From: Candidatus Brocadiia bacterium
GTDB lineage: Bacteria; Planctomycetota; Brocadiia; CAIUPP01
NCBI GenBank assembly: GCA_050015075.1
Contig: JBEKCB010000008.1
Location: 64,001-128,000, forward strand
Reading direction: 5' to 3'
DNA: 64,000 nt
Part shown: positions 25,012 through 58,000 of the stretch, one piece after another
Layout: each line of letters begins with the position of its first letter
Numbering within the stretch: position 1 is the stretch's first letter
Program-made: the position numbers and the translations under genes
Notes under the pieces: generated by a model
What the model saw: only the letters and a program-made list of their open reading frames with translations
What the model was told of the DNA's origin: nothing
The model's database searches: none

Positions 25012-25086
25012 GCGGGCGTAGCTCAGTGGTAGAGCACGACGTTGCCAACGTCGTTGCCGTGGGTTCGAGCCCCATCGCCCGCTCCA
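25012..25086 (+). tRNA. tRNA-Gly (GCC)
   Basis: Acceptor gcgggcg/cgcccgc, D-loop agctcagtggtagagc, anticodon arm cgacg-ttGCCaa-cgtcg, T-loop gttcgag, encoded CCA. Confidence 0.97.
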
Positions 25087-28433: not shown

Positions 28434-28568
28434 GACGGGCGGCGCGCGACTGGCGATAAGCGATTGAGGATTGGGGCGTCGAAGCGCGAGGAACTCGCAG
28501 GTCGGTTCGTAGAGGTTGGGCGAATGCCGACCGACATAAGCTGCACTGGTTTCTCCTTGCGGCGGCGG

Positions 28569-29555
28569 ATGCAGACAGCGACGAGGCTCCTCTCGCTGTT
28601 TATGCTGGCGGCATCCGCGGGCTTGGCTGCCGAACCACCGGCCGTCACGCGTGATGACGCGGCTCCAATGTACCTGGAGGCTTTCGTCAACCTCCCGGAG
28701 TACTTCGAGCCCCGCGCCCGCGAGGAGGATTCGCTCCCGCTTGTAGGCGATGGCCGATTGCCGGCTTTGGGGAAGCCGATGGCTGAGGATCAGAGGCAAG
28801 CCATCGCAAAGTACCTGGAGGTCAACGCGAAGTGTCTGGCATTGCTGCACGAGGCGGGTGCGCTGAAAGAGTGCCGTTGGCCGGACAAGTATAAGGAGAC
28901 ATCGCAGCGCTTTCAGGCCATTATGTCAGGAGCACGCCAAGGTGCGCGGCTGCTGGAGCTCGAGGCAATCGTTCAGGCCGAGACGGGCAAGAGCGAACTC
29001 GCAGCACGGGCGGTCCAGGACAGCTTCGTGATGGCGAAACGCTTGGAGGACATCGATCCGCCTTTGGGCATCATGGTCCGGGATGCGTGCGAACAGCTGA
29101 CTGCCGGGGCACTTGAACGCGTTCTGAATCGCGTGCAGATTTCCGAGGCGGACCTCTCCGCTCTTGCTCAGTCTGTGGCCGCAGCGGACTTGTCCGTCGC
29201 ACTTCCAGCCAGCGAATTTGACAACGATCCGCATTTGAAAGGGAGAGGCATCGGCCTTTGGCATACTTGGTTGCGCAATGCTCAAGCTGCGATCGCCGTC
29301 GAGCGCTTTCGAGCCGCTGAGGGAAAGCTGCCGGTGGGCCTGGACGCTCTAGTTCCGCGTTTCCTCTCGGCGGTCCCGATAGATCCCTTTGACGGCCAAC
29401 CGCTGCGCTACCGGCAGACTGAAGTTAGATATGTCGTTTACAGCGTAGGCCCGAGCAAGACTGACCAAGGCGGGCGCTGGGATAACCCGACAGGGTGGGT
29501 TGGCGAAACAGGCAACCTTCCGTTCAGGGTTGAGCGGGAAGCGACGCATAAATAG
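28569..29555 (+). CDS. Secreted hypothetical protein with C-terminal LPxxLxxLVPxFLxxVPxDPF...YSVGP motif
   Basis: Signal peptide; motif related to 2015..3412; weaker codon bias than flanking core genes. Confidence 0.75.
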   Translation: MQTATRLLSLFMLAASAGLAAEPPAVTRDDAAPMYLEAFVNLPEYFEPRAREEDSLPLVGDGRLPALGKPMAEDQRQAIAKYLEVNAKCLALLHEAGALKECRWPDKYKETSQRFQAIMSGARQGARLLELEAIVQAETGKSELAARAVQDSFVMAKRLEDIDPPLGIMVRDACEQLTAGALERVLNRVQISEADLSALAQSVAAADLSVALPASEFDNDPHLKGRGIGLWHTWLRNAQAAIAVERFRAAEGKLPVGLDALVPRFLSAVPIDPFDGQPLRYRQTEVRYVVYSVGPSKTDQGGRWDNPTGWVGETGNLPFRVEREATHK

Positions 29556-30278: not shown

Positions 30279-30367
30279 CGTATCGGTCTCCCTCAGCCCG
30301 GCGAATAAAGCGGTCAACTGAAACGAGTAATTCTAGCCGCGCTGTCCTGCGGTTATCAAGACCAAGC

Positions 30368-31126
30368 TCAGTAGCGGTCCCACTGCCAGAACCTGAGCCG
30401 GCATTCACGCCCTTCCGCAGCCAGCGCTGCGCTGTACGCCGGATCAGGGTGAAGCGCCGTGAGCGACCACTGTCCTGCTTGCCCGGGGTCGCCCTGAATC
30501 GCGAGAATCGCCGCAGGTTCGCACGGCGCCAGAGACACCGCGACGTTCTTCAACGGGAAGGAAAGTCCTATGCCGATTGCCTTGAGGTACGCCTCCTTCC
30601 GCGTCCAGCAGTTGAAGAAGCCCTTTTGCCGCTGGTCGGCGGGCAGGGCCAGAAACGCCTTCAACTCGGCTTCCGCGAAGAAGCGCTTGGCCATCCTTTC
30701 GCACGGCACATCGGAGCGCACGCGCTCCAGGTCAATGCCGACCTGCCTCCGGCGCGCCACGGCGAAGATCGCCAGCCCGTAGGAGTCCGACATGTTGAAG
30801 CTGATCCCCTCTCCGCCGCATTCGGGCGCGACGGCCGGCTTTCCGTGAGGCCCATAATTGAATTGCACTCGCTCGGGTTCCACGTGGAGATATCGGCCGA
30901 GAATCCCACGCAGAATCGCGCGCCCCACGATGAATTGCTCCCGGACTTCCTGGAGGGAAAACCGCGCCGCCTTACTCCGCTCGTCCTCGGACAGCAGTTG
31001 CAGGAGGCTCGGGATTTTCGACGCTTCGCGGCGAAGCGAGGCGCGCCAGACGTGGACTTCGCTCTCGTCCGGAACCGGGTTATCAGGAGGCGGAGTCCAC
31101 TGGTATTGCGATGAGGTGTCGCTCAT
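30368..31126 (-). CDS. Sfp/HetI-type 4'-phosphopantetheinyl transferase
   Basis: HGKP, FNMS, VGIDLE, WTRKEAYLKA; ATGA overlap with the NRPS stop. Confidence 0.93.
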   Translation of the reverse strand: MSDTSSQYQWTPPPDNPVPDESEVHVWRASLRREASKIPSLLQLLSEDERSKAARFSLQEVREQFIVGRAILRGILGRYLHVEPERVQFNYGPHGKPAVAPECGGEGISFNMSDSYGLAIFAVARRRQVGIDLERVRSDVPCERMAKRFFAEAELKAFLALPADQRQKGFFNCWTRKEAYLKAIGIGLSFPLKNVAVSLAPCEPAAILAIQGDPGQAGQWSLTALHPDPAYSAALAAEGRECRLRFWQWDRY

Positions 31127-34100
31127 GTCCTCGGGCCGCGAGCGGATGTTTGCGCCTCCTCGAGGTGGGCCTTGAAATATCCCGCGAGGACGCGCACGTT
31201 CGGCTCGCTCAGGATCAGCTCGTGCACTCCTGGGACAGAGTACACCTCTGCGCCGCCGGTGGCGAGTTCGCGCCAGGCCAGTCTCGCTCCATGTCTCAGG
31301 CGCGGCGTGGTTTCATTCGCCAGGAACAGGATCAGGCGGCCCTGGTAAAGCTTCGGCCTGTACCATCGCCCGGCGCGCCCGCCGGCGCGGAGCAGGGTCC
31401 GGGAGTATGCCGCCAATTGCCGCAGGTATTTGTTCAGTCCCCGCGCGGCTTCCACGCGCGCGGCGCGGCCCGCGGCGAGTCGCCGGACGTAGGCCGCCTG
31501 CCCATCCAACGTAAGCTGCGAAAGGTTGCGCAGGTGCTTTGCGCCGCGCTGAAACTGTTGCGCGATGAATCCCGGCTCGGGCCGCGCGAGTTGACGGACA
31601 TAGGCCGCCTGCCCGTCCGACTGAGGCTGCGAAAGGTCGCGCACGTCTCCTGAGCCGCGCCGAACGCGACGCTCGATGAATCCCCAGCCGGGGCACAAGC
31701 TCGCGTAATTCAACCATCGCGCCGGAGGGCTGAAGGTGTCCAGCAGCGCCAGGAAGGCGACCTCGTCGCCGCGCGCTTTGAGTTGTTGCGCCATCTCGTA
31801 CGCCACCACTCCTCCGGTGCACATCCCGCACAGGAAGTACGGCCCCTTCGGCTGGACCTTTCGCACCTCTTCCAGATAGCGGGCCGCCAGAGACTCGATC
31901 GAGACGCGCGGCTTGCGCGAGCGGGGCAGGCCCAACGGATGCAGCCCGTAACAGGGCTGCTCGGGCCCCAGGCGGCGCGCCAGGTGGACGAAGATGCCCG
32001 CATTCAGCGTTTCCACGCAGAAGAGAGGCGGCCTCGATCCCTTGGCCTGAATCCCGGTGATGAAGGTTCCCGGCTCGTCTCGGCCGTCCCGTCTGAGAGC
32101 CGCGGCGAGTTGCTCGATCGTGGGCGCTTGCAGCAGCAGCGGGAGCGGCAGGCTTTTCCCGAAAACCTCTTCAATCTCCGCGAAGAGCCGCGCCGCCGCG
32201 AGGGAATGCCCGCCCAACTCGAAAAAGTTGTCCTGCACCCCGATCGGTTCCACGCCGAGAACGTTTCCCCATATCCGGGCCAGCCGCTCTTCCACCGCGT
32301 TCCGCGGCGCCAGGCACACGCTGTCCAACGCAGGCCGCTCGGGCGGAGGCTCGGGAAGCGCCAGGCGGTCCACCTTTCCGTTGGGCGTGAGCGGGATGGA
32401 ATCCATCGGGGTGAACGTCGTTGGGACCATGTAATCCGGTAGTATCTTCTCCAGGAAACGCTGTAGTTCAGTTATTGAAGGTGTCCGCAGTTGCTTCGCG
32501 GTCACGTAGGCTGCGAGAGATTTGCTTCCCGGAATATCTTCCCGGGCTATTACCACGGCTTCTTTCACCGCAGGATGGCGGGAGAGGGCCGCTTCAATCT
32601 CGCCTAACTCGACGCGAAAGCCGCGGATCTTGACCTGATGATCCAATCGGCCGATGAATTCGATATCCCCGATCGGGAGGTAACGCGCCAGGTCACCCGT
32701 CTTGTACAGGCGCGCGTCCTGTTCATTACTGAATGGGTGGCGAATGAACCGCTCGGCGGACAACTCCGGCTGATTGAGGTAACCGCGTGCAAGACCGGGG
32801 CCGCCGATGCATAGCTCGCCCGCGACTCCGATCGGGACCGGGTTCAGGTTACCGTCGAGAATGTAGGCCGTCGTGTTGGCGATCGGCCTGCCGATCGGGA
32901 CAGTCCTCATCCCGTCCTGGACGCGCTCCACGAGATTCCAAGTGGCAAAGGTGGTCGCTTCGGTGGGGCCGTAAACATGGAGTAATCGCTCAGGCGGCGA
33001 CCGACGGAGGACCTCCGCCACCGACTGGGGATCCGCGGCCTCTCCGCCAAACAGCATCACGCGCAGGCGGCCAAAGAGCGAGGGCATCTCGCGGGCGTAT
33101 TCGTTGAAGAGCGCGGTCGTGAGGAACAGGACGTTGATCCCTTGGCGGCCGACGAGCGCGTCCAGCTCGCGCGGCACAAGCAGCGCCTGTTTCGGCACAA
33201 TCACGAGTCGGCCGCCGTTCAGGAGCGCACCCCAGATTTCGAACGTCGCCGCGTCGAAGGAGCTGTTCGAGGCCTGGGCCATGACCGAGGAGGCGTCCAG
33301 CCGTACATAGTCCGTATTCATGACCAAGCGCACGACGGCGCGGTGCGGCACGGCTACGCCCTTGGGCTGCCCAGTGGAACCGGACGTGTAGATCACGTAC
33401 GCGAGGTCGTCCGGCTCGACGGCCGCGTCGGGGTTTATCTCAGGACCCGCCGCGGCGTCTTCCTCTTCGAGGTGGACCACGGTGACCTTCGAAGTCGGCA
33501 CTGCTTCCGACAGCCGCTGCGAAGCGAGCAGGATGGACGCGCCGGCGTCCTCGATCATGAACGCCAGGCGATCCTTCGGAAACGAGGGATCCAGCGGCAC
33601 GTAGGCCGCCCCTGCCTTGAGGATCGCCAGGAGGGCAGCCAGCATCTCGGACGAGGGCTCGGCGTAAATGCACACCATCGCGCCCGGCTGGACGCCGAGG
33701 GCCTGCAGACGACGGGCCAGGCGGTTCGCGCGGGCGTTGAGCTCGGAATACGTCCACTGCGCGTCGGCGTCCACGATGGCCACGGCCCCGGGCGTCCGCG
33801 CCACCTGCTCCTCGAAAAGCTGGTGCACACACTTGTCCTTCGGATAGTCCGTCGCTGTTCGGTTCCAGTCTGTCAAGACCTGCTGTCGTTCTGGCCCTGT
33901 CAAAAGCGGCAACTCGGAAATCCTTCGGCCCGCGCCGTCGGCGGCGAGAGCTATCAGCAGAGCGCGGAAATGCCCCAGCATACGGTCCATCGCCGGCGCG
34001 TCGAAGAGCGCGGGGTTGTAGGTCATCGAGCAATGAAGCCCGCCCTCCTTCGGTTCGACGCACAGGTGCGCATCGAACTGCGCCGTCTGCGGCTCGAGCT

Positions 34101-37098
34101 CGAGCCGCTCCAGCCGAAGCGGCCCGTCCGCCGCCTGTTCGTCCGGCAGGTTGAGGAATTCGAAGACGATCTGAATGAGCGGCAGGCAGCCCTGCTCGCG
34201 CGCGGGGCGGGTCGCTTCCACCACTTTCTCGAACGGGACGTCCTGATGCTCGAGCGCGCCGAGGACCGTGCGGTGGACGCGCCGCAGCAGCTCTCGAAAC
34301 GTGACTTCGCCGGAAAGGTCCGTGCGCAGCGCGAGCATGTTGACGAAGCAACCGATGAGGCCTTCGAGCTCTGTGCGGTTTCGGCCGGCGATCGGCGTTC
34401 CGACGACGATATCCGTCTGCATCGTGTAACGATGCAGCAAGACCTTGAATACCGCGACGAGCGCCACGAACAGTGAGACGCCTTCGCGGCGACTCAATTC
34501 CTCCAGGCGTCGAAGCAGGCTGCCGGGCAGATCAAGGTTGCGCTGTGCGCTCAAGAACGTCCGCGCGCCCTTCCGCGCGTGTCCCCGGCCCAGGGCGCAC
34601 GACGGCGGCGCACTTTTGAGATTGCGCTTCCAATACTCGATCTGCCGGGCGAAAAGCGGGCTGGCTTCGAGTTCCTGTTGCCAAAGCGCATAGTCGGCGT
34701 ATTGAAGCGGCAACGGCGGCAGAGGTGACGGCGCTCCGCGACTGAACGCCGCATAGAGTACGGAAAGTTCCCTTCGCAGAATGACCTCGGACCACGCGTC
34801 GGAGACGATGTGGTGGAGCGTCAGCGTGAGCACATGGTCGTCGGGCGACAGGCGGAGCAGCTTCGCGCGCATCGGCGGGCCCTGGGCGAGGTCGAAACGC
34901 CGCCGCGCGTCCTCGCGGTGTGACCGCAGCGCCTCGGCGACGGAACCGTCGGCGGCGTCGCTTCGAGTCAACGGCACGTCCATGTCTGAAACCGGGCGCT
35001 GCGTGGACCGGCCGTTCTCGGTGCGGTACACCGTCCTGAGCAGCGCGTGGCGGCGGACCAACTCGTGGAGGCTTCGCTCCAGCGCGGGAATGTCCACGGT
35101 CCCGCGCAACCGGTACGCGAAAAGGACATTGCACAAAGAGGCGTCGGGTTCGTATTCGTGGAAGAACCACCAGCTTTGCTGCGGGTAGGAGAGTGGCATC
35201 GCGCCCTCGGAGCCGTTCCGCCGCAGCGGCGGAATCCCCGGGCTGGCGTCAAGGCGCCGCGCTTTCTCGATCTGCTCCGCCATCCCGGCGATCGTCGAGA
35301 CCTCGTCGAGCAGGCTGATGAGCGAAAGCTCCACCGCGAACTTGTCCCAAATGCGGGAGACCAGTTGCGCCGCCAGGATCGAGTCGCCGCCCAAGTGCAA
35401 GAACACGTCGTGGATGCCGATGCGCTCCAGACACAGGATTCCGGCCCACAACTGCGCCAGTTCGCGTTCCAGCGGAGTCCTCGGCGCGACGTACTCCACC
35501 TTGAGGTCGTGCAATTCTTCCGGCTCGCCCTTCAGCCCGAGCCGATCGGCCAAGCCGATACGTTGGATTTTTCCCGTCGGCCCTTTCGGCACGTCCTGCA
35601 CGATAAGTACCCGCCGCGGCACTTTGAAGGCCGCGAGGCATGCGCCCGCGAACTCGCGGATTTCCCGTTCCGAGGCGACGGCGTTCGGCTTGAGCACCAC
35701 GGCTGCAGCAACGTCCTCGCCCAGCCGCGCATCGGGCATGGCGAACGTCACCGCCTGTAAGATCGCCGGATGGCCGATCAGCGCCTCGTCCACTTCTCGC
35801 GGCGAAATCTTCTCACCGCCCCGGTTGATCAGCTCCTTGAGGCGCCCGGTAATGAAAAGATATCCCTCCGGGTCCAGATAGCCCTGGTCGCCCGTCCGGA
35901 ACCAGCCTTGAGTGAACGCGGACTCGTTGGCGCTCGGATTGTTCTCGTAGCCTTTTGTGAGGTTCTCGCCGCGCAGGACGATTTCCCCGGTTTGGCCCTG
36001 AGCGAGCAGCCGTCCAGCTTCGTCCATGATCGCGACCTCGGATCCCGTCACGAGGCCGACCGAGCCCGGTTTGCGCGTGGCTGGCGGAAGCGGATTGCCG
36101 GCAATCTGGTGAGACGCCTCCGTCATGCCGTACGCTTCGACCACCGGCGCGCGGAAGACGGCCTCCAGGTCCGCGATCACTTTCGGAGCCAGCGCGGCGG
36201 AGGACGAGCGGATGAATCGCAGCGGGCAATTGGCGATGGTCGCGCGGTGCGCAGCAGACTGCACCAGGATGGATTGGTGCATCGTCGGCACGGCGGTGTA
36301 CCAAGTCGGGTGGAATTCCGCGATCCACTCGAAGAATCTCGGCGCGATGAACCCCGGCGCGCAGACCACGCTTGCGCCCGCCCGAAGCGATGCGAGCAAG
36401 CTAGCCACGATGCCGTGAATGTGGAACAGCGGCATGACGTTCAGGCAGCGGTCGCTCTTGATAAGCCCCAGCGCCCTGCCCACGTTTCCGGCGGAGGCGC
36501 AGAGACTCCGATGGGTCAGCGGAACGCGTTTCGGCCGAGAGGCCGTTCCCGAAGTGTAAAGGACAAGGGCGACGTCCTCCGGGACGCACCATTCGCCGGT
36601 CGCCGACGGTCGCGCGTCCCGGGCGTTGAGCGTGAAGATCCCCGCGCCTTCTTCGAGCACCGGCGAAAGCTCAATGACCGGAACGCCGCGTCGCTCGGCC
36701 GCTTCGGTCGCTGCCGACTTCGCGCCCGACTCAAGGATCAACGCCTTCGGGGCCAGGTCAGCGAGGCAGAAATCGAATTCCTGGACGCCGTAGCTCGGAT
36801 TGAGGGGGCAAGCTGTCGCGCAGGAAACCACGCTCAGGAAAGCCGTGGCCATCTCCGGGCCGTTGGGCAGCACGATGGCCACGCGATCGCCGCGACCGAT
36901 TCCAAGCGACCGGAACTTCCGAGCGGTGTCGCGGACGTGCGTGTGCAAACCTGCGTACGTCAGCGGGCCGCGTGCCGGGCCCAGCAACGAGACAGCCTCG
37001 GGCGAACGGCGAGCTTGCTCCGCGACAAGATCCAGTATCGACATGCAAGTGCCCGCCTGTATGACGCTTGGATCTGCGTCGGCAATTAATCCTGCCAT
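31123..37098 (-). CDS. Nonribosomal peptide synthetase: acyl-CoA ligase-PCP-C-A-PCP-TE
   Basis: Ligase TSGTASRPK/YGMTE; PCP LGGDS; C HHIVSD; A YTSGSTGQPKG, YGPTE; PCP LGGHS; TE GMCTGG...PGVH. Confidence 0.93.
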   Translation of the reverse strand: MAGLIADADPSVIQAGTCMSILDLVAEQARRSPEAVSLLGPARGPLTYAGLHTHVRDTARKFRSLGIGRGDRVAIVLPNGPEMATAFLSVVSCATACPLNPSYGVQEFDFCLADLAPKALILESGAKSAATEAAERRGVPVIELSPVLEEGAGIFTLNARDARPSATGEWCVPEDVALVLYTSGTASRPKRVPLTHRSLCASAGNVGRALGLIKSDRCLNVMPLFHIHGIVASLLASLRAGASVVCAPGFIAPRFFEWIAEFHPTWYTAVPTMHQSILVQSAAHRATIANCPLRFIRSSSAALAPKVIADLEAVFRAPVVEAYGMTEASHQIAGNPLPPATRKPGSVGLVTGSEVAIMDEAGRLLAQGQTGEIVLRGENLTKGYENNPSANESAFTQGWFRTGDQGYLDPEGYLFITGRLKELINRGGEKISPREVDEALIGHPAILQAVTFAMPDARLGEDVAAAVVLKPNAVASEREIREFAGACLAAFKVPRRVLIVQDVPKGPTGKIQRIGLADRLGLKGEPEELHDLKVEYVAPRTPLERELAQLWAGILCLERIGIHDVFLHLGGDSILAAQLVSRIWDKFAVELSLISLLDEVSTIAGMAEQIEKARRLDASPGIPPLRRNGSEGAMPLSYPQQSWWFFHEYEPDASLCNVLFAYRLRGTVDIPALERSLHELVRRHALLRTVYRTENGRSTQRPVSDMDVPLTRSDAADGSVAEALRSHREDARRRFDLAQGPPMRAKLLRLSPDDHVLTLTLHHIVSDAWSEVILRRELSVLYAAFSRGAPSPLPPLPLQYADYALWQQELEASPLFARQIEYWKRNLKSAPPSCALGRGHARKGARTFLSAQRNLDLPGSLLRRLEELSRREGVSLFVALVAVFKVLLHRYTMQTDIVVGTPIAGRNRTELEGLIGCFVNMLALRTDLSGEVTFRELLRRVHRTVLGALEHQDVPFEKVVEATRPAREQGCLPLIQIVFEFLNLPDEQAADGPLRLERLELEPQTAQFDAHLCVEPKEGGLHCSMTYNPALFDAPAMDRMLGHFRALLIALAADGAGRRISELPLLTGPERQQVLTDWNRTATDYPKDKCVHQLFEEQVARTPGAVAIVDADAQWTYSELNARANRLARRLQALGVQPGAMVCIYAEPSSEMLAALLAILKAGAAYVPLDPSFPKDRLAFMIEDAGASILLASQRLSEAVPTSKVTVVHLEEEDAAAGPEINPDAAVEPDDLAYVIYTSGSTGQPKGVAVPHRAVVRLVMNTDYVRLDASSVMAQASNSSFDAATFEIWGALLNGGRLVIVPKQALLVPRELDALVGRQGINVLFLTTALFNEYAREMPSLFGRLRVMLFGGEAADPQSVAEVLRRSPPERLLHVYGPTEATTFATWNLVERVQDGMRTVPIGRPIANTTAYILDGNLNPVPIGVAGELCIGGPGLARGYLNQPELSAERFIRHPFSNEQDARLYKTGDLARYLPIGDIEFIGRLDHQVKIRGFRVELGEIEAALSRHPAVKEAVVIAREDIPGSKSLAAYVTAKQLRTPSITELQRFLEKILPDYMVPTTFTPMDSIPLTPNGKVDRLALPEPPPERPALDSVCLAPRNAVEERLARIWGNVLGVEPIGVQDNFFELGGHSLAAARLFAEIEEVFGKSLPLPLLLQAPTIEQLAAALRRDGRDEPGTFITGIQAKGSRPPLFCVETLNAGIFVHLARRLGPEQPCYGLHPLGLPRSRKPRVSIESLAARYLEEVRKVQPKGPYFLCGMCTGGVVAYEMAQQLKARGDEVAFLALLDTFSPPARWLNYASLCPGWGFIERRVRRGSGDVRDLSQPQSDGQAAYVRQLARPEPGFIAQQFQRGAKHLRNLSQLTLDGQAAYVRRLAAGRAARVEAARGLNKYLRQLAAYSRTLLRAGGRAGRWYRPKLYQGRLILFLANETTPRLRHGARLAWRELATGGAEVYSVPGVHELILSEPNVRVLAGYFKAHLEEAQTSARGPRT

Positions 37099-37604
37099 AT
37101 TCGCTTAGACATGCGGCCGCCCTCCACACAGCGGTCAGGCGGCAAGTGTCATACTCTGACGACCGAGTTCACTCCCTTTAACCAGGATTTATCAAATACC
37201 TGCCCTCCACGCGACCGGCGGGCAAGCCGTCCACATGACGGTCAGCCATCGAGGATCGTATTCTGATCGTCAAAATCCCCCTTGTCAATTCAACCACAGT
37301 GACAAAGGCACGGCTAGCTTCGTTGCCTTGTTCTGGAAGACGATACGCCCACGCGCGCCCCTCGCGCGCATGAATGGAAAGAGGAGCCGGAGCGGTTTGT
37401 CGTAGGTACGGGATGGCCAGACATGTTTGGACCTCCGGCCGTATAGACTACGGTATTAAGGCCGACCAAAATCAGTTCCGCCCAATGGCGAAACTGATTG
37501 GGCAAGGCTATAGCAAGGACGTTTGCCGAGGCCGATCTCTCGGAACTCGTATATCATGAAGGAGGGGGTGTTGCGCCAGATTGCCAAGGAGACGGGCGTC
37601 AGCC

Positions 37605-37938
37605 TCTCCTCGCCCAGCCGCACGACCAACCCCCGCAGTTCCTGAGCGAGGTGGGGTCTGCCGGACTTCTTGGGCGTCCTCCCTCTCTTGACGTCGTTTA
37701 TCCAGCGGCGGTACGTCGGGAGCGTGACAACTTCCAGCAGAGGGCCGACCAAATGGCCGAACTCCGAACTCAGCCGAAGCAGCTCGTATCTTTCTTTGGA
37801 AGAGGGTACAATGCGGTCTGCCCGGACACGCTTCCGCAGCATGGCCACCTGGGCTTTCAGAAAGCGTATCTGAGCGTTGTGTCGAGGAGCGAAAGCCTGG
37901 AGGAAGAGGCTGAGAACGGTTCAGAGGGCATTTGTCAT
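37605..37938 (-). pseudogene. 5' fragment of an rve/IS-type integrase-transposase
   Basis: QIRFLKAQ..MLRKR...ER.ELLRL...VVT..TYRRW...GRP....ELR.LVVRL; in-frame TGA at codon 6 (37921-37923); catalytic domain absent. Confidence 0.7.
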
Positions 37939-37999: not shown

Positions 38000-38209
38000 A
38001 TGAAAATCAGCGCTCGAAACAAATTCGTCGGCAAGGTCAAGCATATCACCCACGGCACGGTCAACTCCGAGGTCATCATCGCCCTGCCCGGTGGCCAGGA
38101 ATTGGTCTCGGTCATCACCGAGACTTCGGTCCAATATCTCAAGCTGAAAACCGGCTCCCGCGTCGTCGCTTTCATCAAGGCGTCCAACGTCTTGCTGGCC
38201 GTGCCGTGA
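38000..38209 (+). CDS. Mop/TOBE molybdate-binding protein
   Basis: MKISARN...G.VNSEV...SVIT..S...L.L..G..V.AFIKAS. Confidence 0.93.
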   Translation: MKISARNKFVGKVKHITHGTVNSEVIIALPGGQELVSVITETSVQYLKLKTGSRVVAFIKASNVLLAVP

Positions 38210-41868: not shown

Positions 41869-42102
41869 ATGAGAAACCGGTCCAGCGCGTCATAAGATCA
41901 CCCCATGCGCGTCTATTGGGGTTGGACGCGCAGAAGAATGGACTGAGCTTGACTAAAAAGGCGTAAAAGCTCGTAACGGCAGCGACCGTCGCCGACGGCT
42001 CTCTCGCCATCGGCATGGCACTCAACTCGCAGGCCCTTGCAGCGAAGGATAGTTCTGATGGGCAAGACAGACAAGAGCACGAAACGAGAAATTGAGGCCA
42101 TT

Positions 42103-42915
42103 ATGGCGAAAAAGTCCGAAAAGCTCGAAGGCCTGCCGAAGAAACTCAAAACAAAGGTCTATAACCGGGAGCTGGCGCGGCTGCAAACCGAGATGGTCAA
42201 ATTGCAGGAATGGATCAAGCTCAAAGGCCTCAAGGTGGTGGTGATTTTTGAGGGGCGTGATGCAGCCGGTAAAGGAGGCGTGATCAAGCGAGTGACGGCG
42301 CTGACGAACCCGCGCATTGTCCGAATTGCGGCCCTGGGGACTCCCACGGAGCGGGAAAAAACGCAATGGTATTTCCAGCGTTATGTCGCGCATCTGCCAG
42401 CAGCCGGCGAAATGGTGCTCTTTGACCGCAGTTGGTACAACCGCGCCGGCGTTGAGCGCGTGATGGGTTTTTGTACGGACAAGGAATACGAGGAGTTCCT
42501 GCACATCTGTCCCGGATTTGAGAAAGCACTGATACAATCCGGGATTGTTCTCGTCAAGTACTGGTTCTCGGTGAGTGACGAGGTTCAGGAAGCCCGTTTC
42601 CAGAAGAGGCTCAAAGATCCGGCCCGGCGTTGGAAACTCAGTCCCATGGATCTTCAGGCTCGCGCGCACTGGGTGGATTATTCCAAGGCCAAGGATGTGA
42701 TGTTTGAACACACAAACACCACACACTCTCCCTGGCATGTGGTGGATGCGAACGACAAGAAGCGCGCACGGTTGAATTGCATGACGCATTTATTGGGCCG
42801 CATTCCCTACAAGGATGTGACTGGAAAAACTCTAGCAATCCCTAAACGGCAGAAGGACAAAGGGTATAAACGGCCATCTTTGAGCAAGCAGACCTTTGTC
42901 CCGACGATTTACTGA
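42103..42915 (+). CDS. ppk2: Polyphosphate kinase 2
   Basis: FEGRDAAGKGG, WYFQRY, FDRSWYNRAGVE, WKLSPMD, KKRARLN (alternative start 42058). Confidence 0.95.
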   Translation: MAKKSEKLEGLPKKLKTKVYNRELARLQTEMVKLQEWIKLKGLKVVVIFEGRDAAGKGGVIKRVTALTNPRIVRIAALGTPTEREKTQWYFQRYVAHLPAAGEMVLFDRSWYNRAGVERVMGFCTDKEYEEFLHICPGFEKALIQSGIVLVKYWFSVSDEVQEARFQKRLKDPARRWKLSPMDLQARAHWVDYSKAKDVMFEHTNTTHSPWHVVDANDKKRARLNCMTHLLGRIPYKDVTGKTLAIPKRQKDKGYKRPSLSKQTFVPTIY

Positions 42916-43388: not shown

Positions 43389-45143
43389 GTGCAAGGAACA
43401 GGTGCAGTGACGCAGTTACCGTTAACTCCAAGGGGCGCATCCGCTTCACGGTGGTGGCCGCTTGAGTATTCGAGGTCGTTCCTGCGCCTGGATGTCATAG
43501 CCGGCCTGACAACGGCTGCCGTGGTCATCCCTCAGGCTCTGGCCTATGCCGGAATTGCCGGCCTGCCTCCCAGCGTGGGACTGTATACCGCCGTTTTCCC
43601 GATGGTGGCGTATGCCCTGTTGGGCACCTCGCGTCCGCTCAGCGTCAGCACCACCTCGACCGTTGCCATTATGTGCGCCGGACTGCTCGCCGCGACCGTT
43701 CCCGCCGGCGACCCTGCCGGCCTGATTGCAGCGTCATCCACGTTGGCATGCCTGGTGGGCGCCTTCCTCCTGCTGTCCGGCATCCTGCGCATGGGATTCA
43801 TCGCCAACTTCCTCTCTATTCCCGTGCTCGCGGGATTCAAGGCGGGCATTGGCTTGGTCATTCTGCTGAATCAGATTCCCAAACTCCTGGGCATACACGT
43901 TGAGAAGGGCAACTTCCTGGCCAGTCTGCTCTCTCTCGCCCGGCATCTGCCCGAGGCCGGCGCAGCGACGGTGATTCTCGGAATCGGCGCCGTGACCCTC
44001 GTGTTGGCCCTGCAAAAATACGCTCGCCGGGTGCCGGCGCCGCTGGTAGTTGCGATTCTTGGTATTGCCGCAGCCGCGATATTTGACTTGCGCGGACAGG
44101 GCGTTGAATTGACTGGCACCGTCCAAGGCGGTATGCCTTCGCCGGCCTGGCCGAACCTATCCCTCGCGACACAGTTGTGGCCCGGAGCTTTGGCCATCGC
44201 GCTGATGGTTTTCACGGAGTCCATCGCCGCGGCCAAGACCTTTGCGCGGCACGGCGACCCGCGTCCGAACGCCGACCGGGAGTTGCTCGCGCTCGGAGGC
44301 GCCAACCTGATCGGCTGCCTCTTTGGCATCATGCCCGCAAGCGGGGGCACCTCGCAGACCGCCGTGAACCTGAGGTCCGGCGCCCGCACCCAGGCCGCCG
44401 AGATCGTCACCGCATTGCTCGGGCTTGCCGCGTTGCTGTTTCTGGGGCCGGTCATCGGCCTGTTGCCGAAGACTGTGCTCGCGGCGGTCGTCATCGCCGC
44501 CATCCTCCCGTTGCTCAACCCGGTGGGTTTCCGGGCCATTCTGCGCGTCCGCGCCGAGGAGTTCGTGTGGGCGCTGGCCGCCCTGGCGGGCGTCGTGGTC
44601 TTTGGCATGCTCTGGGGCATCCTGTTGGCGGTGGCGATCTCGATGCTCACGCTGTTCTACCTGGCCAACCATCCTCCCGTCTACGTGCTGGCGTATAACC
44701 GTTCGGAGGACGTGTTCCGCCCGTTGGGTGAGAGCCCGGACGACGTGACCTTGCCGGGCGTGCTCATCCTCCGCACGGAAGGACGCATGCACTTCGCCAG
44801 CGCCCCCCGGCCGGCCGAAAAGATGCGCGCCCTGGTGGACGAATGGCATCCCCGCGTGCTTGTCCTGGACTGCCGCGCCATCCCGGATTTTGAGTATACG
44901 GCCCTGACCATGATGTTGGAGGCGGAGCAAACGCTGCGCGAGCGCGGAATCACGCTGCGTCTGGCGGGGCTGAATCCCGGCGCGCGAAAGGTGATTGAGC
45001 GTTCGCCGCTGGGTGCGGCGCTTGGCCCGGACCGGATATTTGGCACTGTGCGCGAAGCCGTGAGCGACACCTTGTGCGCGAAACTTGCTGCGCGTGGTAT
45101 CAGCGGATTCCCCAACGCGAAGGTTACGATAGCGGAGGAATAA
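43389..45143 (+). CDS. SulP/SLC26 anion transporter with STAS domain
   Basis: DVIAGLT.AAVVIPQALAYA.IAGLPP..GLY, REL.ALG.AN, GARTQ, C-terminal STAS. Confidence 0.93.
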   Translation: MQGTGAVTQLPLTPRGASASRWWPLEYSRSFLRLDVIAGLTTAAVVIPQALAYAGIAGLPPSVGLYTAVFPMVAYALLGTSRPLSVSTTSTVAIMCAGLLAATVPAGDPAGLIAASSTLACLVGAFLLLSGILRMGFIANFLSIPVLAGFKAGIGLVILLNQIPKLLGIHVEKGNFLASLLSLARHLPEAGAATVILGIGAVTLVLALQKYARRVPAPLVVAILGIAAAAIFDLRGQGVELTGTVQGGMPSPAWPNLSLATQLWPGALAIALMVFTESIAAAKTFARHGDPRPNADRELLALGGANLIGCLFGIMPASGGTSQTAVNLRSGARTQAAEIVTALLGLAALLFLGPVIGLLPKTVLAAVVIAAILPLLNPVGFRAILRVRAEEFVWALAALAGVVVFGMLWGILLAVAISMLTLFYLANHPPVYVLAYNRSEDVFRPLGESPDDVTLPGVLILRTEGRMHFASAPRPAEKMRALVDEWHPRVLVLDCRAIPDFEYTALTMMLEAEQTLRERGITLRLAGLNPGARKVIERSPLGAALGPDRIFGTVREAVSDTLCAKLAARGISGFPNAKVTIAEE

Positions 45144-52001: not shown

Positions 52002-55000
52002 CTAATGGCCCTTGACATAGACCGCCACAGCCGTCGTGGCCGCGGTCATTGTAAACGTAACGGATTTCTGCGCGGCAGGCTGCACCGCGCCGCTCACCGT
52101 CCAATGCGAGAAGGTGTACCCGGCCGGGTCTGTGGCCGGGGCCTGCAGGTTCACGCTCGTCCCATACGCGACTCCGGTCCTCGTGTAGTTCGTCGTGCCG
52201 CCGTGGCCCGTGCTCGAGCTGATGACCTGCTTGACCGGCGGCGTGGACTGCACGGTGAGCGCGTAGCCGATGTTCGATGTGTAGTGCGCCACCGCCGTCA
52301 CGGCCGCGTCCATCGTGAGCGTGATGGACTTCTGCCCGTCAGGCTGCGCCGCGCCGTTCACCGTCCACTGCAAGAAGGTGTATCCGGCCGGGTCTGTCGC
52401 CGGCGCCTGGAGATTCACGCTCGTCCCGTACGCGACCCCGGTCTTCGTGTAGTTCGTCGTGCCGCCGTGCCCTGTGCTGGAGCCGATGACCTGCTTGACC
52501 GGCGGCGTGGACTGCACGGTGAGCGCGTAGCCGACGTTCGCCGTGTACTGCGCCACCGCCGTCACGGCCGCGCTTATCGTGAACGTGACGGATTTCTGCC
52601 CGGGCGTCTGCGCCGCGCCGTCCACCGTCCATTGCGAGAAGGTGTATCCGGCCGGGTCCGTCGCCGGTGCCTGCACGTTCACGCTCGTCCCGTACGCGAC
52701 CCCGGCCTTCGTGTAGTTCGTCGTGCCGCCGTGCCCCGTGCTCGAGCCGATGACCTGCTTGCCCGGCGTCGTGGCCTGCACGGAGAGCGTGTACCCCATG
52801 TTCGCCGTATACTGCGCCACCGCCGTCACGGCTCCATCCATCGTGAACGTGACGGATTTCTGCCCCGGACTCTGCCCCGCGCCGTTCACCGTCCACTGCG
52901 AGAAGGTGTATCCCGCCGGGTCCGTCGCCGGCGCCTGGAGATTCACGCTCGTCCCGTTGCCGACCCCGCCCTTCACGTAGTTCGTCGTGCCGTTCCGGCC
53001 CGTGCTCGAGCTGATGACCAGCCCGGTCGGCGGCGTGGAGTCCACGGTCAGCGTGTAGCCGATGTTCGCTGTGTACTCCGCCACCGCCGTCACGGCCCCA
53101 TCCATCGTGAACGTGACGGATTTCTGCCCGGGCGCCTGCGCCGCGCCGTTCACCGTCCATTGCGAGAAGGTGTATCCGCCCGGGTCCGTCGCCGGCGCCG
53201 CCACGTTCACGCTCGTGCCGTACGCAACGCCGGGCACCGTGTAGTTCGTGATGCCGCCGTCGAACGTGCTCGAGGTGACGACCTGCTTGCCCGGAGGCGT
53301 GGACTGCACGGTGAGCGTGTAGCCGACATTCGCGGTGTAGTGCGCCAGGGCCGTCACGGCCGCGTCCATCGTGAACGTGATGGACTTCTGCCCGTCCGGC
53401 TGCGCCGCCCCGTTCAGCGTCCACTGCGAGAAGGTGTACCCGGCCGGGTCCGTCGCCGGCGCCGCCAGGTTCACGGTCGTCCCGTATGCGACGGTATTCG
53501 CGTAGTTCGTCGTGCCGCTGTTGCCCGTGCTCGAACCGATGGCCTGCTTGCCCGCAGGCGTGGACTGCACCGTCAGCGTGTAGCTGATGTTCGCCGTGTA
53601 GTGCGCCGCCGCCGTCACGGCCGCGTCCATCGTGAACGTGATGGACTTCTGCCCGTCCGGCTGCGCCGCCCCGTTCAGCGTCCACTGCGAGAAGGTGTAT
53701 CCGGCCGGGTCCGTCGCCGGCGCCGCCAGGTTCACGCTGGCGCCGTCCCCGATCCCCGTGATCGTGTAGTTCGTCGTGCCGCTCTGCCCCGTGCTCGAGC
53801 CGATGCCCTGCCCGGCCGGCGGCGTGGACTGCACGGTCAGCGTGTAGCCGTTCAGCGTGTATTGCGCCACCGCCGTCATGCCCCCATCCATCGTGAACGT
53901 GATGGATTTCTCCCCGGCCGTCTGCGCGACGCCGTTCAACGTCCATTGCGAGAAGGTGTATCCGGCCGGGTCCGTCGCCGGCGCTTGCAGGTTCACGCTC
54001 GTCCCATTACCGACGCTCTTATTGGTGTAGTAGTTCGTCGTCCCTTTCTGCCCCGTGCTCGATCCGATGCTCAGCCCGGCCGGCGGCGTGGATTCCACCG
54101 TCAGCGCGTACCCGTTCAGCGTGTACTGCGCCACGGCCGTCATGCCCCCATCCATCGTGAAGGTGATGGATTTCTCCCCGGCCGTCTGCGCCGCGCCGTT
54201 CACCGTCCACTGCGAGAAGGTGTACCCCGCCGGGTCCGTCGCCGGCGCCTGGAGATTCACGCTCGTCCCGTTGCCGACCCCGGCCTTCACGTAGTTCGTC
54301 GTGCCGTTCTGCCCCGTGCTCGAGCTGATGACCAGCCCGGTCGGCGGCGTGGAGTCCACGGTCAGCGCGTAGCCGATGTTCGATGTGTACTCCGCCACCG
54401 CCGTCACGGCCCCGTCCATTGTGAACGTGACGGATTTCTGCCCGGGCGTCTGCGCCGCGCCGTTCACCGTCCATTGCGAGAAGGTGTACCCCGCCGGGTC
54501 CGCCGCCGGCGCCTGGAGATTCACGCTCGTCCCGTTGCCGACCCCGCTCTTCGCGTAGTTCGTCGTGCCGTTCTGCCCCGTGCTCGAGGTGATGACCTGC
54601 TTGGCCGGCGGCGTGGAGTCCACGGTCAGCGTGTAACCGATGTTCGCTGTGTACTCCGCCACCGCCGTCACGGCCCCGTCCATTGTGAACGTGACGGATT
54701 TCTGTCCGGGCGCCTGCGCCGCGCCGTTCACCGTCCATTGCGAGAAGGTGTATCCGGCCGGGTCCGTCGCCGGCGCCGCCACGTTCACGCTCGTGCCGTA
54801 CGCAACGCCGGGGACTGTGTAGTTCGTGATGCCGCCGTCGAACGTGCTCGAGGTGACGACCTGCTTGCCCGGCGGCGTGGACTGCACCGTCAGCGTGTAG
54901 CCGGTGTTCGCTGTGTACTCCGCCACCGCCGTCACCGCCGCATCTATCGTGAACGTGATGGACTTCTGCCCGTCCGGCTGCGCCGCGCCGTTCAGCGTCC

Positions 55001-58000
55001 ACTGCGAGAAGGTGTACCCGGCCGGGTCTGTCGCCGGCGCCGCCAGGTTCACGCTCGTCCCATACGCGATTCCGGTCTTCGTGTAGCTCGTCGTGCCGCC
55101 CTGGCCCGTGCTCGAACCGATGGCCTGCTTGCCCACAGGCGTGGACTGCACCGTCAGCGTGTAGCTGATGTTCGCCGTGTAATGCGCCACCGCCGTCACC
55201 GCCGCATCCATCGTGAACGTGACCGACTTCTGCCCCGGACCCTGCGCCGCGCCGTTCACCGTCCACCGCGAGAAGGTGTACCCGGCCGGGTCTGCGTCCG
55301 GCGCCGCCACGTTCACGCACGTCCCGTTACAGACGCCGGACATCGCGCAGTTCGTCGTGCCGCTATGGCCCGTGCTCGAACCGATGCTCAATCCGGTCGG
55401 CGGTGTGGACTGCATGGAAAGCGTGTAGCCGGTGTTCGGCGTGTACTTCGCCACCGCCGTCACCGCCGCATCCATCGTGAACGTGACCGACTTCTGCCCC
55501 GGACTCTGCGCCGCGCCGTTCACCGTCCATTGCGAGAAACTGTATCCGCCCGGGTCCGTCGCCGGCGCCTGCAGGTTCACGGCCGTGCCGTACCCGACCC
55601 CCGGAATCGTGCACTTCGTCGTGCCGCCCTGGCCCGTGCTCGAACCGATGCTCAGCCCGGTCGGCGGTGTGGATTCCACCGTCAGCGCGTAACTCATGTT
55701 CGATGTGTACTGCGCCACCGCCGTCACCGCCGCGTTCAGGGTGAACGTGACCGACTTCTGCCCCGGACTCTGCGCCGCGCCGTTCACCGTCCATTGCGAG
55801 AAGGTGTATCCGCCCGGGTCCGTCGCCGGCGCTTGCAGGTTCACGCTCGTGCCGTACACGACCGTGTCCGCGTAGTTCGTCGTCCCGTTGTTGCCCGTGC
55901 TCGAAGCGATGCCCAGCCCCGTCGGCGGCGTGGACTGCACGGCCAGCGTGTAAGTCGGCGTGTACTCCGCCACCGCCGTCGCGGCCGCGATCATCGTGAA
56001 CGTGATGGACTTCTGCCCCGCAGTCTGCGCCGCGCCGTTCACCGTCCACTGCGAGAAGACGTACCCGGCCGGGTCCGTCGCCGGCGCCGCCAGGTTCACG
56101 CTCGCCCCGGACGCGACGCCCGGCACCGTGTAGTTCGTCGTCCCGCCGTCGGCGCTGCCCGAAGTGATCACGATCCCGGTCGGCGGCATGGACTGCACGC
56201 TCAGCGCGTAGACCGGCGCGTACTGCGCCACCGCCGTCGCGGCCGCGGGCATCGTGAAGGTGATCGCCTTCTGCCCGGCGGTCTGCGCCGCGCCGTTCAC
56301 CGTCCACTGCGAGAAGACGTACCCGGCCGGGTCCGTCGCCGGCGCCGCCAGGTTCACGCTCGCTCCGTACGACACGCTCGACACGGTATAGTTCGTCGCC
56401 CCGCCGTCGCCCGTGCTCGAACCAATGCGCAGCCCGGTCACCGGCGTGGACTGCACCGTCAGCGCGTAGGTGTTCAGCGTGTACTGTGCTACCGCCGTCG
56501 CGCCCGCGGTCATCGGGAACGTAATGGACTTCTGCCCGGCGGTCTGCGCCGCGCCGTTCACCGTCCACTGAGAGAAGGTGTAGCCGGTCGGGTCCGTCGC
56601 CGGGGTCGCCAGGTTCACGCTCGTGCCGTACCCGACGCCCGTCACGGTGTAGTTCGTCGCCCCACCGTCGGCGCCGCTCGAAGTGACCACGATCCCGGTC
56701 GGCGGCGTGGACTGCACATTCAGCGTGTAGGGGTTCGCCGTGTACTGCGCCACCGCCGTCGTGCCTGCGCTCATCGGGAACGTGATGGACTTCTGCCCGG
56801 CGGTCTGCGCTGCGCCGTTCACCGTCCACTGCGAGAAGGTGTAGCCGGTCGGGTCCGTCGCCGGCGCCGCCAGGTTCACGCTGGTATTATACGCGATGCT
56901 CGACACGGCGTAGTTCGTCGTCCCGCTGTTGCCGCTGGTCGAAGTGATCACGACGCCGGTCGGCGGCGTGGACTGCACCGTCAGCGCGTAGGTATTCACC
57001 GTGTACACCGCCACCGCTGTCATGGCCATCGCGGGCATCGTGGGCGTGATTTCCTTCTCACCCGCAGGCTGCGGCGTTCCGTTCAGAGTCCAGCAAGAGA
57101 AAGTGTAGCCGGTCGGGTCCGTCGCCGGGGCTTGCAGGTCAACGCTTATCCCGTACCCGACGGTATTGGTGTAGCTCGTCGTGCCGTCATTGCCCGTGCT
57201 CGAACCGATGCTGAGCCCGGTCGGCGGCGTGGACTGCACCGTCAGCGTGTAGGTGTTCAGCGTATACTGCGCTACTGCCGTCGCGCCCGCGGTCATTGGG
57301 AACGTAATGGACTTCTGCCCGGCGGCCTGCGCCGCACCGTTCACCGTCCACTGCGAGAACGTGTACCCGGTCGGGTCCGTTGCCGGGGCCGCCAGGTTCA
57401 CACTCGTCGCGTATACGGCGGTACCGGCGTAGTTCGTCGCGCCGCCGTTGCCGCTGGTCGAAGTGATCACGACGCCGGTCGGCGGGGTGGACTGCACGTT
57501 CAGCGTGTAGGAGTTCGCCGTGTACTGCGCCACAGCCACCATGTTCGTGGGCACGGTGAACGTGATGGACTTCTGCCCGGCAGTCTGCGCCGCACTGTTG
57601 ACCGTCCACTGCGAGAATGTGTACCCAAGCGGATCCGTGGCCGGCGCCTGGAGGTTCACGCTCGCGTCGTACCCGACGGTATCGGTGTAGTCCGTCGTGC
57701 CGGCGTTGCCCCTGCTCGAACCGATGCTCAGGCCGGTCGGCGGCGCGGACTGCACCGCCAGGTTGCACGTGCCCTGGAACTCGTAGGCGCCCATGTCCAC
57801 CGCGGGGCCCACGATTCGCGGATTGCCGTCAAGGTCCGTCGTCACGCCTGACGGAACCGCGGCATTGTTGCCGGCGTCAATGCAGGGGCTGCCGGCCCGC
57901 AGCCGGTAATCGCCCGTTGTCGTCGGCGAGAAAAATGCGGCGACGGGCGACACGAACGTCGGGTCAGCGGCGATGTTCGCGCCGCTATCCGTGCCGATCG

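Follow-up and report, generated by a model that had tools for sequence, protein, structure and literature searches.

Which acid does a short nonribosomal peptide synthetase (NRPS) in a Candidatus Brocadiia genome load first, and what does it then release? The synthetase is encoded in a 64,000-nucleotide stretch of contig JBEKCB010000008.1 (positions 64,001 to 128,000; the window in what follows), next to a gene for a 4'-phosphopantetheinyl transferase (PPTase). An earlier note on this DNA had proposed a synthetase of N-oxalyl- (or short acyl-) isoleucine, in a small-molecule pathway of its own. We find that the starter domain, A1, groups with oxalyl-CoA synthetases by sequence, fold, pocket residues and the gene context of its standalone relatives, an assignment that survived testing, and that it belongs to a large family of such domains fused to carriers. 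That the two genes form a unit making an N-oxalyl branched-chain amino acid (N-oxalyl-L-Ile/Val) is a prediction from sequence that we hold at about even chances. The features concerned are these.

31123..37098, minus strand: NRPS gene, with adenylation (A), carrier (T), condensation (C) and thioesterase (TE) domains in the order A1-T1-C-A2-T2-TE; 1991 amino acids (aa) from the first ATG (the database entry starts at Met19 and has 1973 aa)
35524..37041, minus strand: A1, the oxalyl-CoA-synthetase-like starter, aa 20-525
36541..36543, minus strand: Ala186 codon of the A1 P-loop, a position at which all 270 relatives have Thr
35254..35481, minus strand: T1 carrier domain, intact GGDS motif, Ser573
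33880..35208, minus strand: condensation domain, elongation-type by its top PDB matches, HHIVSDA (His763)
32329..33846, minus strand: A2, amino-acid adenylation domain, code DAFFLGVTFK (Ile/Val)
32083..32301, minus strand: T2 carrier domain, intact GGHS motif, Ser1632
31144..32031, minus strand: thioesterase with a GxCxG motif, Cys nucleophile (G-M-C1760-T-G), Asp1787 and His1959
31475..31684, minus strand: segment of the TE lid duplicated in tandem, in frame, as two copies of 99 nt with a 111-nt period (37 aa) and 78% identity
30368..31126, minus strand: PPTase gene, 252 aa, Pfam ACPS and AASDHPPT_N

The NRPS reading frame (37098-31123) has no internal stop, and the Pfam domains on it (two each of AMP-binding, AMP-binding_C and PP-binding, Condensation at residues 631-1073, and Thioesterase) bear out the ligase-carrier-C-A-carrier-TE layout of the earlier note. 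So does the ATGA overlap of the NRPS stop and the PPTase start for the translational coupling that it claimed; the top NCBIfam model of the PPTase is HetI, at 228 bits, under that model's cut-off of 370. Tailoring and export genes had been described as absent, and family-model scans indeed found no tailoring, MbtH, export or oxalate-metabolism families among the scanned open reading frames (ORFs) of the window. As in a type I NRPS, there is a C-A-T module with intact motifs, a terminal TE and a PPTase.

The starter domain and its pocket

The five motifs that had pointed to a starter of the AAE3/Pcs60 type each occur once in A1 (MPLFHIHG at residue 222, WYTAVPTMHQ at 266, LRFIRSSSA at 293, YGMTEASHQ at 323 and KGPTGKIQR at 505). 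When A1 was compared with all PDB sequences, full-length oxalyl-CoA synthetases came first (5ie0 at 425 bits, 6qjz at 411 and 8aff at 358); the chain of 8atd, which is shorter and aligns with 8aff, scored 266, and the next family, FadD13, 233, with MatB, fatty-acyl-CoA and aryl ligases all at or below that value. No fatty acyl-AMP ligase (FAAL) is named among the 60 best of these matches. A FAAL or fatty-acyl starter is disfavoured by these scores (233 bits for FadD13 vs 358-425) and by those of the NCBIfam long-chain ligase models, which reach at most 337 bits vs 414 for FadD7, and an aryl-acid A domain of the EntE/DhbE/PchD type because 5wm2, 7tyb and 6e8o score only 183, 156 and 155 bits. 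FadD7 is the top NCBIfam model for A1 and the standalone ligases alike, at 414-425 bits, under its cut-off of 650. The predicted structure of A1-T1 (predicted local distance difference test score 86.6) was ranked by fold through a re-ranking of the Foldseek top 1000, and oxalyl-CoA synthetase entries take the first seven places (Z 49.5-54.9), with MatB at 47.8. The earlier choice of AAE3/Pcs60 over fatty-acyl or aryl ligases is thus upheld by sequence and fold, and also by the pocket and by the gene context of standalone relatives.

Published excerpts on the enzyme AtAAE3 give its pocket as V215, H216, C288, S289, A313, M314, H319 and K500, with S289, H319 and K500 contacting oxalate, and describe S289 and H319 as conserved among oxalyl-CoA synthetases only (PMC8905533). 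The aligned residues of A1 are I227, H228, S299, S300, G324, M325, H330 and K510; five of the eight are identical and all three oxalate contacts are kept (S300, H330 and K510). The same excerpts report kcat/KM values for LsOCS of 1.1e5 with oxalate, 1.8e3 with glyoxylate (~1.6%) and 12 with malonate, and no detectable activity with glycolate, lactate or succinate. The pocket string of A1 recurs unchanged in 12 of 67 standalone ligases, and it differs from the commonest string only outside the eight pocket residues. From its sequence A1 would resemble the adenylation half of an oxalyl-CoA synthetase; being fused to T1-C-A2-T2-TE, it is not filed as EC 6.2.1.8.

The standalone bacterial ligases are 52-61% identical to A1. 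A genome scan gave at least 600 matches, of which the best 80 loci were kept (65 standalone ligases and 15 carrier-fused, some with fetched flanks shorter than 10 kb); within these flanks a PanE2-like gene accompanies 56 of the 65 standalone ligases vs none of the 15 carrier-fused loci. In a plasmid search with A1 (four records at E 1e-80) the best match is from Methylobacterium bullatum (57%), where the gene order is oxlT (oxalate/formate antiporter, above the model cut-off), an FAH-family gene, a panE-type reductase and the ligase. PanE2/PanE of M. extorquens is an oxalyl-CoA reductase, according to excerpts of two reports (PMC8411744, PMC9485241). Standalone and fused domains differ at eight alignment columns, two of which are alignment-end gaps, and this comparison of columns revealed no clear loss of CoA binding in the fused domains.

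The carrier-fused family

The relatives considered here are the best 120 long proteins, one of which is the window's own, and the best 120 short ones. Among the other 119 long relatives, 110 start A1-T-C, with 44-61% identity over A1-T1, and 115 of the short ones carry a carrier domain, as A-T or A-T-TE; this prevalence of carriers, together with the lack of PanE2-like genes at the 15 fused loci, fits a biosynthetic role. The eleven best matches among proteins of 3486-5000 aa are 48-65% identical to A1 residues 190-530. The Ser/His/Lys triad is present in 67/67 standalone domains, 94/101 of A-T form, 29/30 of A-T-TE form and 81/127 borne on NRPSs, the remainder having altered pockets. More than 200 carrier-fused relatives therefore retain the oxalate pocket, and the single small-molecule pathway envisaged by the earlier note gives way to one member of a large family. 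We consider it likely that this His-pocket family loads oxalate.

Fused loci come from Gemmatimonadota, Verrucomicrobiota, Cyanobacteriota, Chloroflexota, Acidobacteriota and Thermodesulfobacteriota, and named carriers include Iningainema tapete, Armatimonas rosea, Aerosakkonema funiforme and Moorena. The minimal layout of the window NRPS is shared by sixteen long relatives (one with an extra inserted region) and by loci L013 and L066. The module after the starter is varied, with 83 different codes in 111 proteins; DAFFLGVTFK is found in four, the window protein included, and a single relative (P0037) has both this code and the window layout. No recurrent partner gene was found across the 15 fused loci, and a PPTase like that of the window is present at one of them.

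Trees were built from bacterial relatives and long-branch outgroups only. In a quick IQ-TREE run on 59 rows chosen from 334, 32 of 33 fused domains group on a single branch (SH-aLRT 96) that excludes 22 PanE2-linked ligases. With FastTree and 108 rows, two fused rows lie inside the standalone clade and one carrier-less row inside the fused clade, and the root is unstable. A single origin of the fused domains is compatible with these data.

Several family members are notable for their layout or setting. At L011 (4882-9341) an A1-T is fused to a hexapeptide-repeat acyltransferase within a sugar-nucleotide cluster, and two near-identical ICL/PEP-mutase-family genes, with RRCGH, flank the fusion. 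At a position that is Pro in most of the methylisocitrate lyases compared, their products carry a Ser, which may correspond to Ser281 of A. niger oxaloacetate hydrolase. The sequences weakly suggest that these genes could supply oxalate as oxaloacetate hydrolases, and that glycan oxalylation is possible. Ser281 is a marker of the A. niger enzyme (PMC3256194). Six plasmid relatives of the L011 ICL/PEP-mutase-family protein were found (48-51%), and in the four inspected the flanking ORFs of high third-position G+C (GC3) contain no A1-like or NRPS domain. At L012 (9266-13039) an A1-T adjoins a NeuD/PglB-type sugar acyltransferase and a GT2, and at L039 (1-12619) an A1-T-TE adjoins glycosyltransferase, sulfotransferase and flippase genes. 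At L015 (4179-10353) an A1-T is followed by a lantibiotic-dehydratase N-terminal-domain gene, presumably PEARL-like, and a gamma-glutamyltranspeptidase. Four proteins (P0002, P0004, P0057 and P0067) have two to four tandem A1-like domains, with mutually different pockets, before a single carrier, and six of A1-T-C-A-T form (P0040, P0069, P0070, P0073, P0088 and P0112) end in an aminoglycoside 3-N-acetyltransferase-like domain (PF02522) and not in a TE. L066 (9944-18148) has a minimal NRPS of the window type with a PPTase, but with a frameshift between A1 and T1.

The predicted product and its alternatives

The GGDS motif of T1 is found in all 84 proteins that matched the linker pattern. Among PDB sequences the C domain is closest to Txo1 (283 bits) and Txo2 (280), with CDA-C1, EntF and ObiF1, which we take to be chain-starting domains, at 51, 48 and 49; this nearness to elongation domains fits a carrier-bound donor. 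Its motif HHIVSDA has Ala in place of Gly, as in 8 of 118 relatives. The A2 code, with positions anchored by conserved motifs and consistent with alignments to LgrA and SrfA-C, is the one that the earlier note had read by hand, DAFFLGVTF(K), and its view of an Ile-type domain is matched by known peptides: in excerpts of the respective reports the code DAFFLGVTFK specifies Ile or Val in cyanopeptolins (positions 5 and 7; PMC2533009, Table 1) and L-Ile or D-allo-Ile in suomilide-type peptides (PMC13122637). Pfam found no epimerase domain in the NRPS. A2 very probably takes Ile or Val.

In alignments, Cys1760 of the TE falls on the Cys of AB3403, whose fold is the best match to the T2-TE model, and Asp1787 falls on the ordinary Asp site of AB3403 and NocB, not on position II of ObiF and SulM. 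The duplicated lid segment is partly modelled at low confidence. In excerpts of two reports, Cys nucleophiles are described as less common in TEs; ObiF and SulM, in which the Asp is relocated, close rings with them and do not simply hydrolyse, while their Ser mutants do, and AB3403 keeps the ordinary Asp (PMC11298585, PMC6668435). A ring-forming TE of the ObiF/SulM type is disfavoured, as the Cys is present but Asp1787 sits at the ordinary site. The Cys nucleophile nevertheless means that release may be other than plain hydrolysis. Among relatives that lack a C domain, 21 of 31 TEs have Cys as the nucleophile, and among those that have one, 17 of 34 (Cys:Ser 17:17). An A-T-TE protein that hydrolysed its own load would only burn ATP and regenerate oxalate, so that TEs of this family are presumably able to transfer to an acceptor.

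In the pathway that we propose, the PPTase would prime T1 and T2, and A1, a recruited oxalyl-CoA synthetase, would adenylate oxalate and pass it from oxalyl-AMP to T1 in place of CoA. A2 would load L-Ile (or L-Val) on T2, the C domain would make the amide to give N-oxalyl-L-Ile/Val-S-T2, and the Cys-type TE would take up this product as a thioester and release it, by default as the free acid. Oxalate would be supplied from outside or by genes elsewhere in the genome. Of the N-oxalyl-Ile synthetase first suggested, the oxalate-type starter and the Ile/Val code stand, and the product may be other than free N-oxalyl-Ile, the TE being of the Cys type and Val equally allowed; oxalyl is likewise retained, with a short acyl group as the less likely reading. 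The earlier list of features was right in layout, motifs and code, and had overlooked the Cys-type TE, the P-loop change and the 37-aa lid duplication.

A number of observations weigh against this pathway. The locus has no oxalate-making or oxalate-importing gene, and candidate oxalate-supply genes occur at just one of the 15 fused loci. The full S/H/K triad is missing from 46 of the 127 NRPS-borne domains, which implies that the scaffold changes substrate easily. The patterns used in the genome scan fix four pocket positions, though not the equivalents of S289, H319 or K500; the oxalate role of the standalone ligases is read from their gene context, and in the fold comparison 8atd outscores MatB by little (Z 49.5 vs 47.8). 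The SrfA-C Leu code differs from that of A2 at just two of ten positions, and the TE has a Cys nucleophile and, besides the duplicated lid segment, an altered N-terminal loop. Finally, the P-loop of A1 reads SGTASRP vs SGTTSRP, Ala186 replacing the Thr of all 270 His-pocket relatives, and Ser198 replaces an Asn kept in 268 of the 270.

The P-loop of LsOCS is critical for ATP binding, according to excerpts of PMC8905533, and we found no published measurement of the effect of a Thr-to-Ala substitution there. Judged from the sequence, this copy of A1 may be impaired by the change. It is unlikely, in our estimate, that this copy is the impaired or decaying form of a formerly active oxalyl-NRPS, with a starter that has lost efficient adenylation. 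Among 271 sequences T186A occurs in this one only, and it is joined by N198S; the end branch is 0.55 vs a median of 0.33 in the IQ-TREE run, the lid duplication is modelled at low confidence, and there may be a transposase remnant upstream, in an ORF with no family match. Set against this are the 6-kb frame without stop or shift, the intact coupled PPTase, and the catalytic residues of the pocket, carriers, C domain, A2 and TE, every one of which is kept. Departures at the 182 conserved A1 columns number nine, which is not exceptional for the family (at least nine occur in 37 of 203 fused relatives, the median being four), and the Ala186 codon is one base from a Thr codon, such that an assembly error could account for it. 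This NRPS copy is probably active.

A different ending, in which the TE is a transferase that hands N-oxalyl-Ile/Val over to an amine, alcohol or thiol from outside (candidate acceptors being a sugar, a lipid or a small amine) and the free acid is a side product, is one that we entertain tentatively. It would suit the Cys1760-Asp1787-His1959 triad, the behaviour of the two characterised Cys-TEs, ObiF and SulM, and the transfer suggested for A-T-TE relatives; in addition, L011, L012 and L039 sit among sugar or polysaccharide genes, two of them with hexapeptide-repeat acyltransferases. The Asp, however, is at the ordinary position as in AB3403, unlike ObiF and SulM, Cys and Ser are evenly split among C-containing relatives, oxalyl-Ile has no beta-hydroxyl or amine with which to cyclise, and no acceptor-making gene is adjacent. 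We regard it as rather improbable that the substrate of A1 is some other small acid (glyoxylate, glycolate, malonate or a short acyl group), which would give a different N-acyl-Ile/Val: the slight use of glyoxylate by LsOCS, the altered pockets of many family members and the want of a local oxalate source would allow it, but the A1 pocket string is that of 12 of the standalone ligases, LsOCS is inactive on glycolate, lactate and succinate in the excerpts cited above, and MatB, fatty-acyl-CoA and aryl ligases match A1 poorly. That A1 is still a CoA ligase, making free oxalyl-CoA for metabolism or for direct use by the C domain with T1 dispensable, is highly improbable; the few columns separating standalone and fused forms would favour it, whereas the intact T1 motif, the elongation-type C domain and the PanE2-free fused loci argue for loading of the carrier. 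Release of N-oxalyl-L-Ile/Val as the free acid keeps its place as our working proposal.

Surroundings of the locus and comparison with known systems

Two promoter-like sites were found by consensus matching, vs 1.0 +/- 1.0 in shuffled sequence.

37260..37288, minus strand: TTGACA-17-CAGAAT, ~160 nt upstream of the NRPS, a consensus match only
30330..30359, minus strand: consensus match between the PPTase gene and plsY

The second of these gives slight reason to see plsY as a unit apart. Membership of plsY in the NRPS unit was not supported, given this site of its own and its housekeeping codon use (GC3 0.89 vs 0.80 and 0.78). Between the first site and the NRPS start (37119-37247) there are imperfect 22-nt repeats, two copies being 77% identical; a looser third copy was seen by eye, and the region has no Rfam match. 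The sole match in an Rfam scan of 24-44 kb is a tRNA at 25012-25083. A genomic-island signature was also discounted, as the GC content is not distinct and low GC3 is common to other accessory genes.

On the PPTase side lie plsY, a 363-aa protein (28464-29555, plus strand, after clpX; GC3 0.69, which is low) without a Pfam or NCBIfam match, and tig-clpP-clpX. On the other side are a 130-aa ORF (37459-37848, minus strand), also without a Pfam or NCBIfam match and presumably like a truncated integrase or transposase, a small TOBE-domain (Mop-like) protein (~38010-38206, plus strand, below the 90-aa ORF cut-off), a Zn-ribbon protein and a URO-D-family gene. A PPK2 gene (42037-42915, plus strand) has a GC of 0.53 and a GC3 of 0.65, far under its surroundings. 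A SulP/STAS transporter (43389-45143, plus strand) lies 6 kb from the NRPS; some members of that family transport dicarboxylates or oxalate, and nothing ties this one to the NRPS. A very large protein, 3997 aa long or more and bearing NHL and 23 InlB-B-like repeats (52002-64000, minus strand), runs past the window end.

The nearest characterised proteins, by both sequence and fold, are AtAAE3 (PDB 5IE0/2/3), LsOCS (6QJZ) and yeast Pcs60 (8AFF), which share the IKEL/LKEL hinge with A1. All three act as free-standing proteins with CoA as the oxalyl acceptor, whereas A1 continues into a carrier and an NRPS module, and one Thr of the P-loop is Ala in it. The Methylobacterium-type oxalate-assimilation ligases (beside a PanE2-type reductase and OxlT; NCBIfam FadD7) have the same pocket at 52-61% identity, but stand in a catabolic context with no carrier, and the fused forms lie on a separate branch without PanE2-like neighbours. 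In grass pea, the beta-ODAP (dencichine) pathway (LsAAE3 and LsBOS) makes a natural N-oxalyl amino acid through an oxalyl-activating enzyme of the A1 family; this plant route uses a BAHD acyltransferase, has no carrier or C domain, and has another acceptor than the window NRPS.

The ten-residue code of A2 is identical to those of cyanopeptolin OciB-A5 and OciC-A7 and of suomilide/aeruginosin Ile/Val modules, which belong to long peptides, while A2 is the only amino-acid module of the window NRPS. The TE shares GxCxG with the Cys-TEs of AB3403 (uncharacterised), ObiF1 and SulM, and with AB3403 also the ordinary Asp; ObiF1 and SulM have a relocated Asp and form four-membered rings on beta-substituted residues, which Ile and Val cannot give. 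No link to a known compound was found for the eleven best matches among the 3486-5000-aa proteins or for the named relatives.

N-oxalyl amino acids serve as inhibitors of 2-oxoglutarate oxygenases, and to our knowledge bulky L-configured ones are not general inhibitors of these enzymes. A role for N-oxalyl-Ile/Val as a chelator or 2-oxoglutarate mimic is a guess from product shape, and nothing in the locus bears on it. For the family as a whole, we lean slightly towards an unrecognised oxalyl loading module, spread across many little-studied phyla and derived once from an oxalate-assimilation ligase, that caps nonribosomal peptides (perhaps glycans) to yield a class of N-oxalyl products, possible metal chelators or inhibitors of 2-oxoglutarate-dependent enzymes, with changed pockets extending it to other small acids. 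If this is so, the Ser/His/Lys pocket would be a simple marker for N-oxalyl peptides in several hundred orphan synthetases, and the two-gene, single-module system would be the easiest test case, yet the window copy may be a poor one for assay.

We found no oxalyl-loading NRPS in the literature covered, which largely excludes subscription journals, and a published example may exist. The available main text of a 2024 review of A-domain substrates contains no word starting 'oxal' (PMC11253843), and 'oxamic acid' in an excerpt of a cyanobacterial review was set aside as a precedent because the passage concerns synthetic analogues. The loading of a non-amino-acid starter by an acyl-adenylating enzyme is itself established, and it is oxalate as the starter, in a family this large, that appears undescribed. 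With FAAL-ACP pairs, aryl-acid A domains and CoA-ligase-like loading domains, a carrier receives its acid from an acyl-adenylating enzyme, and a C domain then uses that acid to acylate the nitrogen of the first amino acid. The window NRPS would follow the same logic, the difference being its predicted oxalate starter. Oxalate would then be a further acid, next to fatty and aryl ones, with which an NRPS can start; this would extend an established way of loading and would not be new chemistry.

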